DNA of 64,000 nt from an uncultured virus (IMG/VR IMGVR_UViG_3300043774_001557) (Duplodnaviria > Heunggongvirae > Uroviricota > Caudoviricetes), in the IMG/VR virus record IMGVR_UViG_3300043774_001557. One strand, written 5' to 3'. Made by a program: the position numbers and the translations under genes. This document shows, piece by piece, positions 2,175 to 41,117 of the stretch. The notes beneath the pieces were generated by a model. The model saw only the letters and a program-made list of their open reading frames with translations, searched no databases and was not told where the DNA came from. How positions within the stretch are numbered: position 1 is the first letter of the stretch; each line of letters begins with the position of its first letter.

Positions 2175-3179
2175 ATGGCATACATCACCAAATCGGGAAC
2201 AGGCTGGCGCGCTCAGGTGAAGGTAAAGGGCGAGCGCGACAGTCGGGTATTCGACACAAAAGCCGAAGCCCATGCCTGGGGGGCGAAGCGCGAGACGGAG
2301 ATGCGCTCCATCGAAGGCGGGATGGGCAGCAAAACCCATACGATCGGCAATGTGCTTGATACCTACCGGCAAAAGGTGAGCCCGAAGAAGCGGGGCGCGC
2401 GCTGGGAAATGCTCCGCCTTGACCTGATCGGCCGGAAGGAGATCGATGGCAAGCTCTTCCGTGACATCCGTTTGGCCGACCTGAAGCCGCGGCACATCAC
2501 GGCCTGGCGTGATGCCAGAGAGCGGGAGGTGGCTGGCTCGTCAGTCTCCCGGGAGATGTCGCTGCTCTCGCATGCGCTCAAGGTGGCGCGCGACGAATGG
2601 GGATGGTTGCTTACCGATCCCATGAAGACGGTTGGCCGGCCAGCCGACAATCCACCGCGCGAGCGCCGCATCACAGACACTGAAATTGAGCGAATCACGC
2701 AGGCGCTCGGATTCCAAGAGGAGCTACCTGTGGAATTGCCGGTTCAACGGGTGGCTGTGGCATTTCTGTTCGCCATTGAGACAGCCATGCGCTCGGGGGA
2801 AATTCTAGGCCTTACCATCCACACCGTGGATAAGGCGGCGCGTGTGGCACATTTGCCGTTGACTAAGAACGGGGGCGCTCGAGACGTCCCGCTATCCACG
2901 CGCGCCCTCGAACTGCTCGAACTGCTGCCCGCAGTAGAGGAGGGGATGCCGCTTTTCAACTTGGGCGACCAGAGCAGAGATGCGCTTTTCCGGAAAGGTC
3001 GAGACCGTTCCGGCATCAAGAACCTCACATTCCACGACACACGCCACGAAGCCATCACGCGGCTGGCAAAGAAGCTCCAGCCGCTGGCCTTGGCCCGAAT
3101 GACGGGGCACACGGACCTCAATGAATTGATGACGTACTACAACGAGTCGGCGGCGGATATTGCCGCCCAGCTCGGCTAG
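2175..3179 (+). CDS. int: Tyrosine recombinase / phage integrase
   Basis: ETAMRSGEI (R), TKNG (K), FHDTRH (HxxR), TGH and YY catalytic residues. Confidence 0.95.
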   Translation: MAYITKSGTGWRAQVKVKGERDSRVFDTKAEAHAWGAKRETEMRSIEGGMGSKTHTIGNVLDTYRQKVSPKKRGARWEMLRLDLIGRKEIDGKLFRDIRLADLKPRHITAWRDAREREVAGSSVSREMSLLSHALKVARDEWGWLLTDPMKTVGRPADNPPRERRITDTEIERITQALGFQEELPVELPVQRVAVAFLFAIETAMRSGEILGLTIHTVDKAARVAHLPLTKNGGARDVPLSTRALELLELLPAVEEGMPLFNLGDQSRDALFRKGRDRSGIKNLTFHDTRHEAITRLAKKLQPLALARMTGHTDLNELMTYYNESAADIAAQLG

Positions 3180-20134: not shown

Positions 20135-21493
20135 TCAGTCAACCAACCCTTTTGCGCGTCTCGGTGCGGCCGGCGGCGTGTACCCGCGCTGCAGGTCATG
20201 GAATGCCGTGTGCTCGCCCTGGTAGGCCAGTGGCACCATGCCCGTTTCTCCTTGGCGCTGCTTGCCGATGAGAACCTCGCAGATGCCATTGGCTTGGCTG
20301 TTCGGATCGTAGACCTCATCGCGGTACAGGAACATGATCGTGTCGGCATCTTGCTCGATTTCGCCAGAGTCGCGCAGGTCGGCCATGCCGGGGCGCTTGT
20401 CGGCTCTGTTTTCCAGCCCGCGGTTGAGCTGGGCGAGCGCGATGATGGGAATGTCGAGTTCCTTCGCCAGCGCCTTGAGCCCGCGCGAATAGCTGCCAAC
20501 TTCCTGATTGCGGTTCTCACTCGGGCCGCCAGTCATCAGGCCAAGATAGTCGACCACCAGCAGGTTGAGGCCATGCTTGCGCTTCACGGTGCGGGCTTTG
20601 CTGCGGACCTCCAGCAGCGTGAGCGCCGGCTGATCGTCAAGGTACAGATTCAGATCCGTGATCTTGTGGGCCGCGACTGTGAAGCGCTGCCAATCGTCGT
20701 CCGTCATCTTCTCCGGCTGCCGCAGATGCTGCATGTGGATGCGGCCCAGCGCGGCGATGTTTCGATCGTGCAATTGGTCGCGTGGCATTTCCATGGAGAG
20801 CACAAGGGCGCTGTAGTTGAGCGCCACGTTGCGGGCAATGCCGAGCGCGAAGGCGGTCTTGCCCATGGCGGGACGGCCAGCCGCAATAATCAGTTCGCCG
20901 CCGCGCATGCCGCCGCCGAGCTTGTCGTCGAGATCACGGAAGCCGGTCGGTATCGCCTTGATCTTGCCTTCGGCCGCTTCCTGCAGCCGGTCGATGTAGT
21001 TGCCAAGGTCGTCACTGGCTTTGATCGGCTCGCTCTTGACACGCTCTTGCGCCAGGTTCTCGAGCTTGGACTGGATTCGATCAACCACAATCCGCGCCTC
21101 GTCCGCGCCCATCACCATCTCCGGGACATCGGCGGCCAACGTCAGTAGTTGGCGCTTGACAGCTTTGTCGCGCACCAGAGCGGAGTAGCGCTTGATGTTC
21201 GCCGAGCTGGGCGTCGATTGCGCCAATGCGTTCAGGTAGGACAGGCCGCCGATATGCTCCGAGTCACCCTTGGCGGCGAATCGTTCGTAGACCGTCACCA
21301 CGTCGGCGGGCTGGCCAGCAGTTATGAGCTCGCAGATGGCGCCGAAGACAGCGGCATGGTCGGCGCGGTAGAAGTGCTCACGGCCCAGGCCTTCAACACG
21401 GTCTATCGCGTCATTATCGAGCAGCAGGGCGCCGAGAATGGATTGCTCGGCCTCAATGGAGTGGGGAACGTCCCGAATGTCGGCGTGACTCAT
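20135..21493 (-). CDS. dnaB: Replicative DNA helicase
   Basis: EAEQSILG, GRPAMGKT, SMEM, VDYL, QLNR, DLRDSGEIEQDAD, KQRQG. Confidence 0.97.
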   Translation of the reverse strand: MSHADIRDVPHSIEAEQSILGALLLDNDAIDRVEGLGREHFYRADHAAVFGAICELITAGQPADVVTVYERFAAKGDSEHIGGLSYLNALAQSTPSSANIKRYSALVRDKAVKRQLLTLAADVPEMVMGADEARIVVDRIQSKLENLAQERVKSEPIKASDDLGNYIDRLQEAAEGKIKAIPTGFRDLDDKLGGGMRGGELIIAAGRPAMGKTAFALGIARNVALNYSALVLSMEMPRDQLHDRNIAALGRIHMQHLRQPEKMTDDDWQRFTVAAHKITDLNLYLDDQPALTLLEVRSKARTVKRKHGLNLLVVDYLGLMTGGPSENRNQEVGSYSRGLKALAKELDIPIIALAQLNRGLENRADKRPGMADLRDSGEIEQDADTIMFLYRDEVYDPNSQANGICEVLIGKQRQGETGMVPLAYQGEHTAFHDLQRGYTPPAAPRRAKGLVD

Positions 21494-22996: not shown

Positions 22997-23024
22997 TTGA
23001 CAACCGATGAGCAACCCCTAAAAT
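22997..23024 (+). promoter_or_regulatory. Sigma70 promoter for repressor gene
   Basis: TTGACA-N16-TAAAAT; predicted +1 at about the ATG at 23032. Confidence 0.7.
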
Positions 23025-23031
23025 CCTGTGC

Positions 23032-23592
23032 ATGAACATCAAAAACATTCGCAACAGCCATGACGACATGCGCGCGAGCGGACCTACCGCGTCGCGCTGG
23101 CCTAGCGTTGGACAAGGAAAGACAAGGGGTATGGACATCAATGCCACCCGGCGCATAAACGTCCGCGCCCTCGCGCGAGAGGCCGGGAGCATGTCCAATC
23201 TGGCGAAGCTGGTCGGCACCAATGAGAACTATCTGTCGTCGTGCACCAGCAACAAGGCCTCTCGCAACATTGGCGATACGCTTGCGCGCAAGATGGAGGC
23301 CGCAACCGGGAAGCCTTACGGCTGGATGGACGAGTCCCACATCACAGAGCAACACCTATTGGCCGCGCGGTTTCTGTACGACAAAATGCTAGAGATGTCG
23401 ACCTCTCGGTTACATGCCCTAGTCGAGGTGCTGGATTTGGTGGATAGTGCAGAGCGGGAAGGCTCTTTGGGTCGTATCGAATTAGCCGATCAATCAGACA
23501 GCACAGACAAGGAGGGGGTCGTAACCCTGAAAGACAATGCAACAACAAGCAAAAGCAAAAGTGCTTCCCCTCTTCCAAGGGGCCGCAAATGA
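23032..23592 (+). CDS. CI-like HTH repressor lacking S24 peptidase domain (alternative start 23131)
   Basis: RRINVRAL...LAKLVGT...YLS...RNIGDTLARKME...GWMD. Confidence 0.8.
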   Translation: MNIKNIRNSHDDMRASGPTASRWPSVGQGKTRGMDINATRRINVRALAREAGSMSNLAKLVGTNENYLSSCTSNKASRNIGDTLARKMEAATGKPYGWMDESHITEQHLLAARFLYDKMLEMSTSRLHALVEVLDLVDSAEREGSLGRIELADQSDSTDKEGVVTLKDNATTSKSKSASPLPRGRK

Positions 23593-23800
23593 AGCCCCCA
23601 GCCATCAGCAGCTCAGAGAGTATGCAGACGACCTGGAGGCGGGGCGGATCAAGGGGCTCGTCGTCTCTTACGTGAGAGATGACGGGGAAGTGGGATACAA
23701 GCTGATGGGGTCGCTTGCCAAGACGAGCAATCTTGGCAGCGCCATCGGGATCATTGGCGAATTGAAAAGGAGAGTTGAGCTCCTTTTTTCAGGCGCATGA
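23537..23800 (+). CDS. Hypothetical protein in immunity operon
   Basis: Open 87-codon frame following cI. Confidence 0.5.
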   Translation: MQQQAKAKVLPLFQGAANEAPSHQQLREYADDLEAGRIKGLVVSYVRDDGEVGYKLMGSLAKTSNLGSAIGIIGELKRRVELLFSGA

Positions 23801-23822
23801 TGCAAATACATTTGCAGAATGC

Positions 23823-23931
23823 TTGACTATGTGCGCCGTATGAACTAGGATTTGTGTAAGTTAGAGGTTGCTTTGCCAGTAGCCACGAGCATTCCCCAAG
23901 AGAGCCCGACAACGTTCGGGCTCTTATTGTT
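23823..23931 (+). promoter_or_regulatory. Putative late promoter plus early terminator (pR'/tR'-like)
   Basis: TTGACT-N17-TAGGAT (23823-23851), then AGAGCCCGA/TCGGGCTCT hairpin with T-rich tail. Confidence 0.65.
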
Positions 23932-24302
23932 TCAAGTTCTTAACTTTACCTCCATCCATGCACCAAAGTGTGGCTTTTATGTAGTGGATGCATAAAAGAA
24001 AACCCCACTCTGTGGTGGGGTCGCGTTTCCTCCGCCCGGCGCTGAGCATCCCCGTTCCACGCGACCCCTGCGCCGATTAAGGGGCCGCGCTCAGATTCTT
24101 CTGTTTGAGCCTTTGCGTGCCTGGTGCCATTTGGCGACGAGGCTTAGATGCGCGCGATTCGTCACTGACCATCTCCCAGCCGGGGAATCCGGCGAATCTG
24201 CTAATTAGCTTGCTGATGCGTGCGACTATAGATAAAGCATTAGCATAAAGCAAATATATTCGCCAATTGTGTGGCGCTAAGCACACACTGCCTCAAGCGA
24301 GG

Positions 24303-24981
24303 CGCTTCATCCAATCGCCGAAACTGCGGTCAGCGCCGTTGAACGCGAACACGCTTCGCACGGGTCGCGGCGATTGGATGAGGTGATCGGTTGCGTGCGC
24401 GCGGCCGACATGCTCTAGCCGGTGAGATGGCGAACCCCGGCGAATCTGTGCGCACAGAAGCTGACGGTGCCGGGAGGCACGCCGGAGAACGTAACCGGCT
24501 CCTTCACGCATGACGATCTAGGGCCTGCAATGTGGGGTAGAGCGGGCGGACTTTAGTGATGGCACACCCTAGTCGTCAGCCGTGAGGGACTACCACTTAC
24601 CCGAGAGGTCGGTGCGGCTTGTCCGTCTGGCGCTTGGGGCCCTCGACGATGTGACACCCCGCTAGCTGTGCGTAAGCGCTGGAGCGGTTGAAATGGTTGG
24701 GCCGTTCGCGTCACTGGGGCGGACACGACGCCGAAGGAATAATCGGCCGCTTGGCTGGCGTAACCAGCCTCTTCACTTCTGCCGGTGATGCGTCACAACC
24801 CCGAGGGGCGGCAGACGTGAGGGTGACAGCCCAAACCAACCTTTGATGTCCGTAGCGATCCCAGAACAATCCGCATACGTGCGGGCGCCGGGTAGAGGAC
24901 ATTGCTGCATGGATGCAGCTCCCAAGGTTTGGCCCCACGTAAGCCGTACGGGCTCATTAACCCGGCGCCGTGGTTCCCTCA
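24303..24981 (+). ncRNA. Array 2 of alternating hairpin and cassette RNA modules
   Basis: Hairpins 24303-24385, 24500-24589, 24770-24823; cassettes 24379-24506, 24582-24776, 24818-24981. Confidence 0.65.
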
Positions 24982-24989
24982 ATCCATTT

Positions 24990-25585
24990 GGATCGGTATG
25001 CGCTAAGGACGCGTCGGCTTAAGAATGAAATCGCCTGCTTCCATTCTTGACCTGAGCAAGAGAACCGTAACCAAGGTCATGAAGCGGCTGAACCTCGGCT
25101 GCTCAAACTGCGATTGGAATCTTGCTACCTGCGACATTCATCACATTCAGCCAAAGAGCAGGGGTGGAACTAATGATCACTCGAACCTTACTTATGTTTG
25201 CCCGAATTGCCATCGTCTGGCCCATGCTGGACTGCTGACAGCATTTGTCACCCTTGATCGGCAGATTGGCGATCGATGGAAGGACTGCTATTTCCCCGAG
25301 CGCGCAAAACGACAGTCTCGACCTTCTGACCATGCCAACCTCGGCAAATACATGGCCGAGAAGCGAGTGGTTGCAGACGAGCGAGCGCGAGTGGCCCTAG
25401 AAAGGCTAAAGACAAGTGGAATCGAATTCGGCAAGCGCGGATGGGTCAAGCGTGCATCGGTCGTCATTGGCATATCTCCGCAAAAGGTCGGTTGGTGGTT
25501 TAAGAGGTATGCCCCAGAATTCCTAGAAGTTCACGATCGCTAAGTTGCTTCGGCTGGCTTGGTTCGATGCCAAGACGGTCCACCA
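24990..25585 (+). pseudogene. Split tRNA-like gene enclosing an HNH ORF
   Basis: 5' half GGATCGG..D-arm..TCGGCTT (24990-25020); 3' half GCTAAGTTGC..CTTGG-TTCGATG-CCAAG-ACGGTCC-A-CCA (25539-25585). Confidence 0.65.
25025..25543 (+). CDS. HNH endonuclease
   Basis: CSNC...DIHHIQPKSRGG.N...NL..VCPNCHR..H. Confidence 0.9.
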   Translation: MKSPASILDLSKRTVTKVMKRLNLGCSNCDWNLATCDIHHIQPKSRGGTNDHSNLTYVCPNCHRLAHAGLLTAFVTLDRQIGDRWKDCYFPERAKRQSRPSDHANLGKYMAEKRVVADERARVALERLKTSGIEFGKRGWVKRASVVIGISPQKVGWWFKRYAPEFLEVHDR

Positions 25586-25591
25586 GAACAC

Positions 25592-25682
25592 GGAAGAGTT
25601 AGCCGAATCGGCATAGCGGCAGCGGTCTTGAAAACCGAAGGCCCGAAAGGGTGTGTGAGTTCGAGTCCCACCTCTTCCGCCA
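25592..25682 (+). tRNA. tRNA-Ser(TGA), phage-encoded
   Basis: GGAAGAG/CTCTTCC-G-CCA; loop CT-TGA-AA; long variable arm. Confidence 0.92.
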
Positions 25683-25686
25683 GTTT

Positions 25687-25776
25687 GGAAGGTTGCCAGA
25701 GAGGCAATGGGTCGGCTTGCTAAGCCGTAGCCGGTGCGCGAGCGCCGCGTGCGTTCGATCCGCACACCTTCCGCCA
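25687..25776 (+). tRNA. tRNA-Ser(GCT), phage-encoded
   Basis: GGAAGGT/ACCTTCC-G-CCA; loop TT-GCT-AA; long variable arm. Confidence 0.9.
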
Positions 25777-26004
25777 TCCTCCCCTGCGCATCCGCGCATT
25801 TGGCCCGCGCTGAACGGGCCTTTTCTTACACGATATGCCCCGGCCGCAACGCACCACACCGGATGACGAGATCATCCCCAACAACGGTTGGGCATGCAGC
25901 GTCCTACTGCTCCTGTATGACCAGGACGGCGAAGACGAGGTGGTCGGGGAGATTGGGCGGGAGGGGTGGTTGCACACGGAGGCCGGCATGGGCGGCGACG
26001 CATC

Positions 26005-26175
26005 GTGAGCCGGACGGCCAAGGGCGGCAAAGGCCCGGGATTCGAATACTGGACCGCGCGCCCCGGCAATCGCTGCGGCGGCACGATCAGTCCGAACGGC
26101 GGGAAACACACCAAGAAGCGCACGCACAAGGCGGAGCGGCAGATTGGCCGTCGGGACGCGCGGGAGACGCAATGA
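26005..26175 (+). CDS. Small basic phage protein
   Basis: GTG start; SRT.KG.KGPG.EYW..RP...K..TH..ER; ATGA overlap. Confidence 0.5.
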   Translation: MSRTAKGGKGPGFEYWTARPGNRCGGTISPNGGKHTKKRTHKAERQIGRRDARETQ

Positions 26176-26474
26176 CGCAAGAACAGTTTCTGTACTGGCT
26201 GCAGGGCTTCGCCGAGCTGAGCGCCACGCCGCCGACCGCGGAGCAATGGAAGTCGATCCGCGAGCATCTGGCGCTGTGCTTCAAGAAGGTGACGCCACCG
26301 GTCCAGACCGGACTCGAGAAGGGAGCGCCTGACCCGATGGCCGGCAAGAGCGTCGAAGACTTCAGACGTGCCATGGAAGACTTGCGCAAGCATGGCGGTT
26401 CAGCATTGCCGCCATTTGATCGCGCGGGCATCCCCAACTGGCCCAATATCGACCGAGTAACCATCACATGCTGA
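26172..26474 (+). CDS. Phage hypothetical protein
   Basis: MT.EQF.YWLQGF.EL...P...QW..I..HL...F.KVTP. Confidence 0.7.
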   Translation: MTQEQFLYWLQGFAELSATPPTAEQWKSIREHLALCFKKVTPPVQTGLEKGAPDPMAGKSVEDFRRAMEDLRKHGGSALPPFDRAGIPNWPNIDRVTITC

Positions 26475-26510
26475 CTAACCGTCACATGCTGACACCAATC
26501 TGAATGAGCG

Positions 26511-31543: not shown

Positions 31544-34209
<2,666 letters not shown>

Positions 34210-41027: not shown

Positions 41028-41034
41028 CGCTTAT

Positions 41035-41117
41035 CCGCGCCTAGGGTAGCTCCCGAAATCTGTTCCTTGGCAGGCTGGCGCGGGTTCTCAACAAGGATAT
41101 GACCATCAAGGAAAGTC
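41035..41117 (+). promoter_or_regulatory. Three-way-junction leader RNA, copy 2
   Basis: CCGCGCC-TAGG..CCGAAA-hairpin(loop TCCTTG)-GGCGCGG; CAAGGA at 41092 and 41107. Confidence 0.6.

Follow-up and report, generated by a model that had tools for sequence, protein, structure and literature searches.

Phage genomes repeatedly yield structured RNAs of unknown function beside tRNA and late genes. In phage T4, the stable RNAs of the tRNA cluster called species 1 and 2 are structured, have no known function, are co-transcribed with the tRNAs and are freed by tRNA processing. Lambdoid phages make a late leader, the transcript from pR' to tR', which is the 6S RNA of lambda. Alternative folding is well illustrated by the add adenine riboswitch of Vibrio vulnificus, a three-state RNA whose 5' extension can take up the 5' strand of the aptamer closing helix, so that the RNA is bistable and only one state has the functional junction. 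GOLLD and ROOL RNAs often adjoin tRNA genes. They are described in the cited passages as large, highly structured non-coding RNAs of unknown function borne by phages and prophages (10.1101/2024.12.08.627333; PMC5737381). The Betaproteobacteria toxic small RNA family RF02278 is represented in the cited passages by the double-hairpin small RNAs ncS03, ncS05, ncS27 and ncS62 of Burkholderia cenocepacia (PMC4603805, PMC5688073), which carry unpaired CU-rich regions reverse-complementary in sequence to the ribosome-binding site, as stated in one of these sources (PMC5688073). Here a further element is described from an uncultured member of the Caudoviricetes (IMG/VR IMGVR_UViG_3300043774_001557), a prophage or viral record of which a stretch of 64,000 nucleotides (nt), the window, was analysed; positions are on the plus strand unless stated. 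The original prediction, made from the letters of the window, saw at 24303-24981 a modular array of non-coding RNA hairpins with overlapping CUUCA/UGAGG junctions. Its 3' part, 24770-24982 (+), encodes a member of a new structured RNA family of uncultured temperate phages and prophages, and it is only this part that is conserved beyond close relatives.

The conserved core and its shared strand

A flanking protein led to three contigs of metagenome-assembled genomes (MAGs), L014-L016, which are identical over the compared stretch and titled Pseudomonadota bacterium. The L014 prophage shares window 23000-24053 at 81% identity and a second block at 88% (Table 1), and two strings recur in the diverged parts of both sequences, GAGGGTRACAGCC and then TCCCTCAA 122-142 nt further on. 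As a search pattern these two strings found 10 matches in viral contigs, all of them true relatives, with about two chance matches expected by our own estimate; in metagenome contigs 10 true relatives and 10 chance matches were found, the latter scoring at most 19 bits with the core model or not at all. Three later scans added eight distinct members (L064, L070, L072 and L073, then L095, L096, L111 and L120), and two loci with the 5' motif and 10.9 bits, L071 and L077, were left out as doubtful. The family comprises 18 distinct copies of 148-189 nt in viral, metagenome and MAG contigs, and two metagenome contigs (L045, L047) are 100% identical to the window over 23319-26482. In genome G002 and 200 of its relatives, blastn with the region gave matches of chance size only, G002 itself excepted. 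The exact pattern had no match in 401 genomes of the class of G002; G002 was missed because it carries UAACAGCC. A separate conserved stretch of 152 nt, starting CTCTTGTAGCTCTTGACAGCCGAAGCC, holds the search pattern in L188, L193, L197 and about 20 other loci; it looks protein-coding and unrelated to the RNA. The original prediction could not assign the RNA to a named family, and Rfam 15 bears this out, since neither core nor array has a match there (window 23500-26000 searched to E 10, eight relatives to E 1). The family is uncatalogued, and "not described" is meant here with respect to Rfam 15 alone.

The core, of about 150-190 nt, has five helices, P1-P5, and measures about 210-300 nt together with P0, the variable hairpin in front of it. 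The junction closed by P1 has two branches, one made of P2, P3 and P4 and the other of P5, the order being P1, UGACAGCC, P2 with P3 and P4, a GCCG strand, P5 and a link of 2-3 nt to P1. Near-invariant primary sequence is limited to three junction segments, GAGGG-UGACAGCC, GCCGC and GGAnUCCCUCA. The purine-pyrimidine (R-Y) pair of P5 (CCRC with GYGG) is GC in 12 of the 18 sequences and AU in five. The helices were first read by eye and then by a covariance model. In the model-fitted alignment of the 18 sequences, 91.9% of cells pair compared with 73.1% after shuffling, a value that none of 500 shuffles reached; changes on both sides were found in 21 of 26 pairs (81 cells), and the covariation score of 0.410 fell to 0.029-0.072 when partners were slid by 1-3 columns. 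Because such an alignment leans to its own model, the helices were recounted on plain MAFFT alignments, where eight sequences gave 89.3% paired cells, both-side changes in 10 of 26 pairs and a score of 0.364 (slid, 0.055-0.110), and six sequences gave 93.9%, 12 of 33 pairs and 0.303 (slid, 0.032-0.057). Furthermore, a "group II" model built from eight sequences recovered six left-out copies at 33.5-77.2 bits, with the window copy at 33.5 bits (E about 6e-7). The strand was also discriminated: 298 of 322 cells pair on the plus strand against 287 if the minus strand were the RNA, G-U cells number 19 and A-C cells 8, and the mean energy of P0 is -36.9 kcal/mol on the plus strand and -31.4 on the minus strand.

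Three further pairings were considered. A four-pair pseudoknot in group I, GACC with GGUC, is a suggestion that carries no compensatory change. Kissing of the P2 and P5 domains, read from a 10-base-pair (bp) match of GGCGCCGGGU with ACCCGGCGCC in the window, was rejected as a conserved contact, being no better than shuffles across the 18 sequences (p = 0.10-0.96). Pairing of GAGGGUGACAG with CUGUCUCCUC, the CU-rich strand that follows the core, was likewise dropped; it reaches at most 10 bp with one bulge and lies within what composition gives (shuffles as good, 0.03-0.64).

Comparison of the copies shows two predicted, mutually exclusive pairings of one strand, both kept by compensatory change. 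GAGGG can pair with the pyrimidine strand on the 5' side of the P0 base or with the CCCUC at the 3' end, forming P1. In 14 of 14 loci the minimum-energy upstream fold is a hairpin of 40-118 nt and -17 to -55 kcal/mol with GAGGG as its 3' strand, and the P0 pairing with the shared strand is present in the four loci found later as well. These hairpins share no sequence but the base strand, which reads CCUUCA, CUUCA, UCUCA, CUCUCA, CUCUCG, CUUUCA or CCAUCA and pairs with UGAGGG, mostly using one or two G-U pairs. P1 was initially without covariation support because GAGGG and CCCUC were invariant in the members then known; the informative variants were found by a scan that left both strands free, followed by a model filter. 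In L096 (the same as L106 and L128) the shared strand is GAGAG, its P1 partner CUCUC and its P0 partner CUUUCA, and in L120 it is GAUGG, with CCAUC(G) in P1 and an A opposite the new U in the P0 strand. Two P1 pairs are accordingly compensatory among the 18, one GC in 17 and UA in one, the other GC in 17 and AU in one. Since both partners changed to match in L096 and L120, both exclusive helices are under selection. A second scan for P1 variants returned only the known ones and one unrelated coding family. The base before GAGGG is C in L031 and L073, with a G opposite it in P0 and an A retained in the 3' partner, so the sixth P1 pair is optional.

The original prediction had read a closing UGAGG(G) as able to pair forward with the next CUUCA or CCUCA strand. 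This pairing is readable in the sequence, at 6 bp for the last junction (24818-24823 with 24976-24981) and only 5 bp for the first, and the upstream alternative at the last junction comprises 7 bp (24817-24823 with 24770-24776). The overlap of CUUCA and UGAGG is no accident there, both pairings of the last junction being kept by compensatory change. Constrained folds separate the two states by -1.8 to +4.0 kcal/mol, with P0 favoured in 11 of 14 loci, and the last G of GAGGG is free in P0 in seven of the 18 sequences, which could give the 3' strand a toehold. One five-base strand with two evolution-matched partners is direct comparative evidence for a two-state RNA, which goes beyond a fold alone.

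Table 1. Features of the window around the RNA element, in order of position
Feature	Position	Strand	Remarks
Promoter-like site TTGACT, 17-nt spacer, TAGGAT	23823..23851	+	9/12 matches
Terminator-like hairpin cluster, ends short leader RNA	23900..24022	+	23900-23925 with T run, 23956-23973, 24001-24022
Block at 88% identity to related prophage L014	24047..24503	+	Contains candidate promoter, two CCGGCGAATCTG, unit A, cassette 1
Unit A, long hairpin CUUCA...UGAGG, 18-bp stem	24305..24383	+	Shuffle z = -5.26; lineage-specific
Small hairpin GCCGG-AGAACGUAA-CCGGC, contains CGTAACC	24481..24499	+	z = -2.69; loop 9 nt
Unit B, long hairpin CCUUCACG...CGUGAGGG	24501..24588	+	z = -3.78; window lineage only, absent from L014
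Small hairpin GGCUGG-CGUAA-CCAGCC, contains CGTAACC, abuts P0	24753..24769	+	z = -2.91; loop 5 nt
P0, variable hairpin UCUUCAC...GUGAGGG	24770..24823	+	z = -3.33; 3' strand ends in UGAGGG 24818-24823
P1, closing helix, GAGGG 24819-24823 with CCCUC 24976-24980	24819..24980	+	18/18 sequences pair
Junction strand UGACAGCC	24824..24831	+	Nearly invariant; UAACAGCC in L014
P2, CAAACC 24832-24837 with GGUUUG 24926-24931	24832..24931	+	Both-side changes 6/6 pairs
P3, inside P2, GAUGUCC with GGACAUU	24845-24851 with 24897-24903	+	Both-side changes 6/6 pairs
P4, hairpin inside P2, GCUGCAU with AUGCAGC	24904-24910 with 24913-24919	+	Both-side changes 5/5 pairs
P5, CCAC 24935-24938 with GUGG 24970-24973	24935..24973	+	Encloses variable 3' domain; covarying R-Y pair
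HNH endonuclease open reading frame	25025..25543	+	Pfam HNH PF01844, E 6.5e-10; outside RNA; absent from L014
tRNA-Ser(UGA) and tRNA-Ser(GCU)	25592..25682, 25687..25776	+	ARAGORN, Rfam tRNA model
CU-rich stretch, hairpin and terminator, weak RF02278 likeness	25778..25827	+	19 bits; terminator-like site 25802-25820

Lineage-specific modules upstream

The three long hairpins of the original prediction, unit A, unit B and P0, were found within 1-2 nt of their predicted places, and all beat dinucleotide shuffles (the z values of Table 1 compare the folding energy of single hairpins with such shuffles). All three are more stable as plus-strand than as minus-strand RNA, by 4-7.5 kcal/mol, with energies on the plus and minus strands of -46.0 and -38.5 kcal/mol for unit A, -41.3 and -37.2 for unit B, and -27.0 and -23.0 for P0. 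The entire 701-nt stretch folds only modestly beyond shuffles (z = -2.13 on the plus strand, -2.72 on the minus strand). Covariation in relatives was confirmed for the core helices and the last junction; the upstream cassettes have no relatives outside the window lineage and L014. Unit A and cassette 1 are common only to these two, at 88% identity, unit A being the same sequence in L014 but for one loop base, and the similarity stops directly behind the CGTAACC hairpin of 24481-24499. Only the window's own lineage has unit B and cassette 2.

The upstream cassettes were considered as diverged copies of the core and rejected as such, since with filters off the covariance model gave at most 10.2 bits in the window and 6.9 in L036, and the best matches within the cassettes of both fall on the wrong strand. 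Nor is the region a tandem array of one unit: Tandem Repeats Finder reports only a 9-nt repeat of 2.1 copies at 24180-24198. Tandem-repeat RNA arrays, such as the ToxI-type antitoxins and clustered regularly interspaced short palindromic repeats (CRISPR), consist of head-to-tail unit copies, whereas the window region has none. Short repeats, CGTAACCNGCYYCTTCAC and CGNCAGNCGTGAGGG, recur in the region, with common motifs of 15-24 nt.

The two hairpins containing CGTAACC exist where they had been placed, and one spacer base separates the small hairpin from CUUCAC; their proposed identity as T-arms fails, with loops of 9 and 5 nt instead of 7. A hairpin like the second one, GGCUG-AAAC-CAGCC followed by CUUCAC, is present in L036. 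As a recurrent module, the small hairpin with CUUCAC was rejected, because only two of 41 viral loci with the pattern have a core and both were already known, and a scan based on CGTAACC returned only window twins and unrelated matches. The upstream modules of L036 are its own and differ from those of the window; among them is a mini-cassette with UGACAGC inside it and GUGAGGG/CCCUCAC as its closing strands. Most loci have one module (P0 and core), L014 has two, and the window and L036 have three. Cassette content thus differs between relatives as had been anticipated, and since the number of modules varies among them, growth by accretion fits. Units A and B and the cassettes are lineage-specific additions that reuse the CUUCA/UGAGG junction.

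Genome setting and transcription

In the window, an integrase gene (2175-3179) adjoins tRNA-Leu (1896-1982), and replication genes, with DnaB at 20135-21493, lie on the minus strand as far as about 23014. Plus-strand genes start at 23032 with a repressor-like gene and an 87-amino-acid open reading frame (ORF), followed by a gene-free gap of about 1.2 kb (23800-25024), most of which is occupied by the predicted array. Behind it come HNH, two tRNA-Ser genes, small ORFs, the small and large terminase and the portal gene. The view that the region holds no credible ORF was upheld: all are at most 75 amino acids long, and the five examined have no Pfam match. The predicted run of the array directly into the tRNAs does not hold for the window, where the tRNAs lie 610 nt downstream of the core and the HNH ORF intervenes. 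The whole array is flanked by a direct repeat of 24 nt, with copies 726 nt apart and 71% alike at 24274-24297 (GCGCTAAG...CTCAAG) and 25000-25023 (GCGCTAAG...CTTAAG). Elsewhere in the window, the Rfam int-alpA RNA RF02996 was found at 41034-41096 (+) with 46.6 bits against a gathering score of 35.8, and a NUDIX domain (E 1.6e-20) was recognised at the N terminus of a 618-amino-acid ORF in the head-morphogenesis region (32353-34209), the gene directly before it being Mu F-like.

The promoter-like site in front of the terminator cluster is not significant by itself, because one such site was found with 1.5 expected in shuffles; it is indirectly supported by very deep RNA-library contigs that start in that area. 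A candidate promoter in the 88% block, read by eye, has TTAGCT at 24205-24210, a 16-nt spacer and TATAGA at 24227-24232. Two exact copies of CCGGCGAATCTG, at 24189-24200 and 24437-24448, 248 bp apart, are both kept in L014 and may mark a protein-binding site; the former copy sits just 5' of the candidate promoter. In L014, an IS3-family element with rve and HTH_Tnp_1 ORFs on the minus strand (L014 7033-8362) lies exactly between the two blocks shared with the window, that is, between the leader block and the equivalent of 24047-24503, so that the L014 array is separated from the upstream promoter. L014 has three tRNAs where the window has the HNH gene and tRNA-Ser.

Among the relatives, the place of the element is constant, with early or replication genes on one side and the terminase module on the other. 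The upstream genes include a VapE-like gene in L034 and a phrog_19609 protein in L031, L034 and L036. They are followed by a promoter-like site and at least one terminator-like hairpin, and such hairpins lie directly against P0 in L031, L033 and L035. Behind the core, a terminator-like hairpin within about 100 nt was read from the sequence of L031, L037, L070, L072, L073 and L111, and a CU-rich strand with hairpin and terminator from that of L031, L034, L035, L072, L073 and L111. A ribosome-binding site and start codon follow 10-25 nt behind the core in L033, L095 and L120. By ARAGORN, a tRNA lies within 100 nt downstream of the core in three of 18 loci, at 7-8 nt behind the element in L014 and L036 and at 96 nt in L035. 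The CU-rich module scores 33.7, 30.5, 27 and 19 bits with RF02278, whose gathering score is 50; the best match is L035 2668-2732, and the window match has 19 bits and E 1.1. In the window and L014 this module sits behind the tRNAs, so the tRNAs look like insertions between the core and its original 3' neighbour, as does the HNH gene of the window.

Two further observations concern tRNA pieces and HNH genes. In L055, six nt behind the core, an apparent 5' half of tRNA-Gly(UCC) up to the anticodon loop can be read by eye (291-330), and an ORF at 305-682 has an HNH-like CxxCH motif at its end, also by eye; ARAGORN reports no tRNA and Pfam no match there, the contig ends nearby, and the tRNA may be interrupted. 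In L003, an AT-rich phage, a sequence at 2690-2750 lies 5' of an HNH gene related to that of the window and ends in GGTTCAACTCCATCATCTCCCACCA, which by eye reads as T-arm, 3' acceptor strand and CCA; ARAGORN made no call.

Expression was read from contigs of four metatranscriptome libraries of two studies that are identical to the window. Run X8 covers 23800-24012 at a depth of 1385-2280 and nothing beyond. Run X5 covers 23800-23983 (depth 64-130), 24092-24282 (41), 24531-24867 (7.5-31) and 25493-25899 (13), run X9 covers 24243-24476 at a depth of 2.3, and run X7 covers 25507-25900 at a depth of 13; 24013-24083 and 24868-25492 are uncovered, and no conclusion is based on these gaps. The hundred-fold unevenness of depth argues for RNA over carried-over DNA. 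The pattern is consistent with a short leader that is made constitutively and ends at the terminators of 23900-24022, with less read-through into the array.

Proposed mechanism, competing explanations and known systems

Based on the two conserved pairings, it is tentatively proposed that an exchange from P0 to P1 gates the final fold of a discrete late RNA. During late transcription P0 would fold first and keep GAGGG; upon completion of the core, and possibly only after its folding or the binding of a factor, CCCUC would capture GAGGG by strand exchange. The last G is often free in P0, and P0 has G-U pairs where P1 has G-C. Formation of P1 would lock a compact junction and release the 5' strand of P0. 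The resulting RNA would obtain its 3' end from a terminator or from processing of the following tRNA, its 5' side possibly being made by cleavage within P0, and units A and B with the cassettes may extend the exchange into a chain in the window. A bolder version, which seems unlikely, is that the switch senses a metabolite, a host or phage protein or the completion of its own fold and then commits the head of the late transcript, with serial junctions relaying the exchange along the cassettes like dominoes; if true, such a relay would be a multi-state RNA device without a described counterpart. The element sits where a temperate phage commits to particle production and could be a new control of late expression or a maturation step. 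With P0 it is small enough for easy probing, mutation and reporter work, and since only the last third of the array is conserved, experiments should be directed to that piece.

Several points weigh against this proposal. How the RNA would be processed and what the switch would bring about downstream are purely conjectural. Covariation of the shared strand in P1 and P0 is confined to two lineages, and the predicted ground state is P0 in 10 of 14 loci and P1 in two, so that with P0 as the usual ground state P1 might need a factor or form rarely. The 18 sequences are mutually related, which inflates the shuffle controls, and the count of 21 of 26 pairs comes from an alignment fitted to the model. 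Within P5, the 3' domain varies between subgroups, and no conserved loop-loop pairing was found in the 18 sequences. A constant protein partner was not found either, as phrog_19609 is upstream in only three of eight loci scanned (the window and seven others). Blastn of the window region and three other cores against 50,697 cultured-phage records gave no match, and in 151 genomes (G002 and 150 relatives) the covariance model matched only G002 itself. The RNA-library contigs carry neither strand nor end information and can contain DNA.

Among the alternatives is a riboswitch-like sensor: the three-way junction would bind a small molecule or protein, P1 would be stabilised over P0, and the expression or stability of the late transcript (tRNAs, small RNA, HNH, terminase) would be altered. 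Its invariant nucleotides in junction strands next to freely variable, covariation-supported helices, the near-equal predicted energies of two conserved exclusive helices, and the fixed place at the late-gene head, in three loci just before a ribosome-binding site and start codon, all agree with such a sensor. The competing strand lies upstream of the aptamer instead of in a downstream expression platform, however, and inspection by eye showed neither a terminator nor a Shine-Dalgarno sequence with complementarity to the freed strand; moreover, the 3' neighbour differs by locus (terminator, tRNA or ORF) and the neighbouring genes point to no ligand, which makes the sensor somewhat unlikely. 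Terminators bear in turn on an antitermination element of the HK022 put type, in which the core would act in cis, modifying its own RNA polymerase for read-through of the following terminator to the late genes. The core does stand at the late-gene head with a strong terminator directly behind it in at least six loci, and no Pfam-recognised Q protein was found among the flanking ORFs. On the other hand, strong terminators also lie directly before P0 in L031, L033 and L035, with no promoter room between, so read-through would be needed there before the core exists. Furthermore, a likely protein antiterminator gene (phrog_19609, of unknown function) is located just 5' of the promoter in several loci, and put RNAs are only about half as long as the core. 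The put-type explanation is accordingly judged improbable.

The original prediction proposed, besides growth by cassette accretion, that a polycistronic precursor is processed in the manner of RNase III or RNase P to yield tRNA mimics or small RNAs, with an acceptor-like stem on a T-arm-like hairpin closing each cassette. Small hairpins do abut the CUUCAC strand in the window, L014, L034, L036 and L037, an RCC tail follows CCCUCA in nine of the 18 sequences as counted by eye, and RNase P must cut behind the element in L014 and L036 because it ends 7-8 nt before a tRNA. Against tRNA mimics, ARAGORN and the Rfam tRNA model, the latter to E 10, call only the tRNA-Leu and two tRNA-Ser genes in the window and nothing on the element, and transfer-messenger RNA, including permuted two-piece forms, was not found by ARAGORN in the window or related loci. 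The loop sizes of the small hairpins, cassettes that are neither conserved nor matched by the core model, single modules in most loci and the scarcity of tRNAs near the core also speak against the precursor, which is left as a poor prospect. A site acting as DNA (cos, pac, terminase-binding, origin or recombination) or functionless palindromes might be suspected from the packaging genes nearby and the HNH gene that follows in the window. Yet compensatory changes keep the helices, including G-U pairs on one strand only, and P0 has undergone complete sequence turnover with its pairing kept, on which grounds a purely DNA-level role is highly improbable; RNA-library contigs also cover the region.

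Among known systems, the lambdoid late leader has a comparable location. The window has a promoter with terminators within about 100-200 nt just before the late genes, and its short leader is by far the most abundant part in one RNA library; by analogy of layout, 23800-24012 resembles a constitutive late leader such as the pR'-tR' RNA of lambda. The matching stretch, 23823-24022, lies upstream of the conserved core, which sits behind the terminators, and we know of no lambda counterpart of this core. The CU-rich neighbour resembles RF02278 RNAs in layout, with UGUCUCCUCC, a hairpin, GAUU and a terminator behind the core in the six loci mentioned and behind the tRNAs in the window and L014. It differs in that the matches are the 3' neighbour of the core and not the core itself, at 19-34 bits and all below the gathering score; since the three MAGs carrying L014 have no RF02278 match above the cut-off, a betaproteobacterial host is not supported. 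GOLLD and ROOL are matched in the phage-borne, structured and non-coding nature of all 18 copies, whereas the new family has no Rfam match, a core of 150-190 nt compared with their 600-800 nt, few nearby tRNAs (only 3 of 18 loci have one within 100 nt) and no evidence of multimer contacts. Likeness to T4 species 1 and 2 lies in their general description as structured RNAs of a phage tRNA cluster. The add riboswitch has no similarity to the new family in sequence or fold, and the likeness is one of mechanism: in both, a strand of the closing helix can be held by a partner further 5'.

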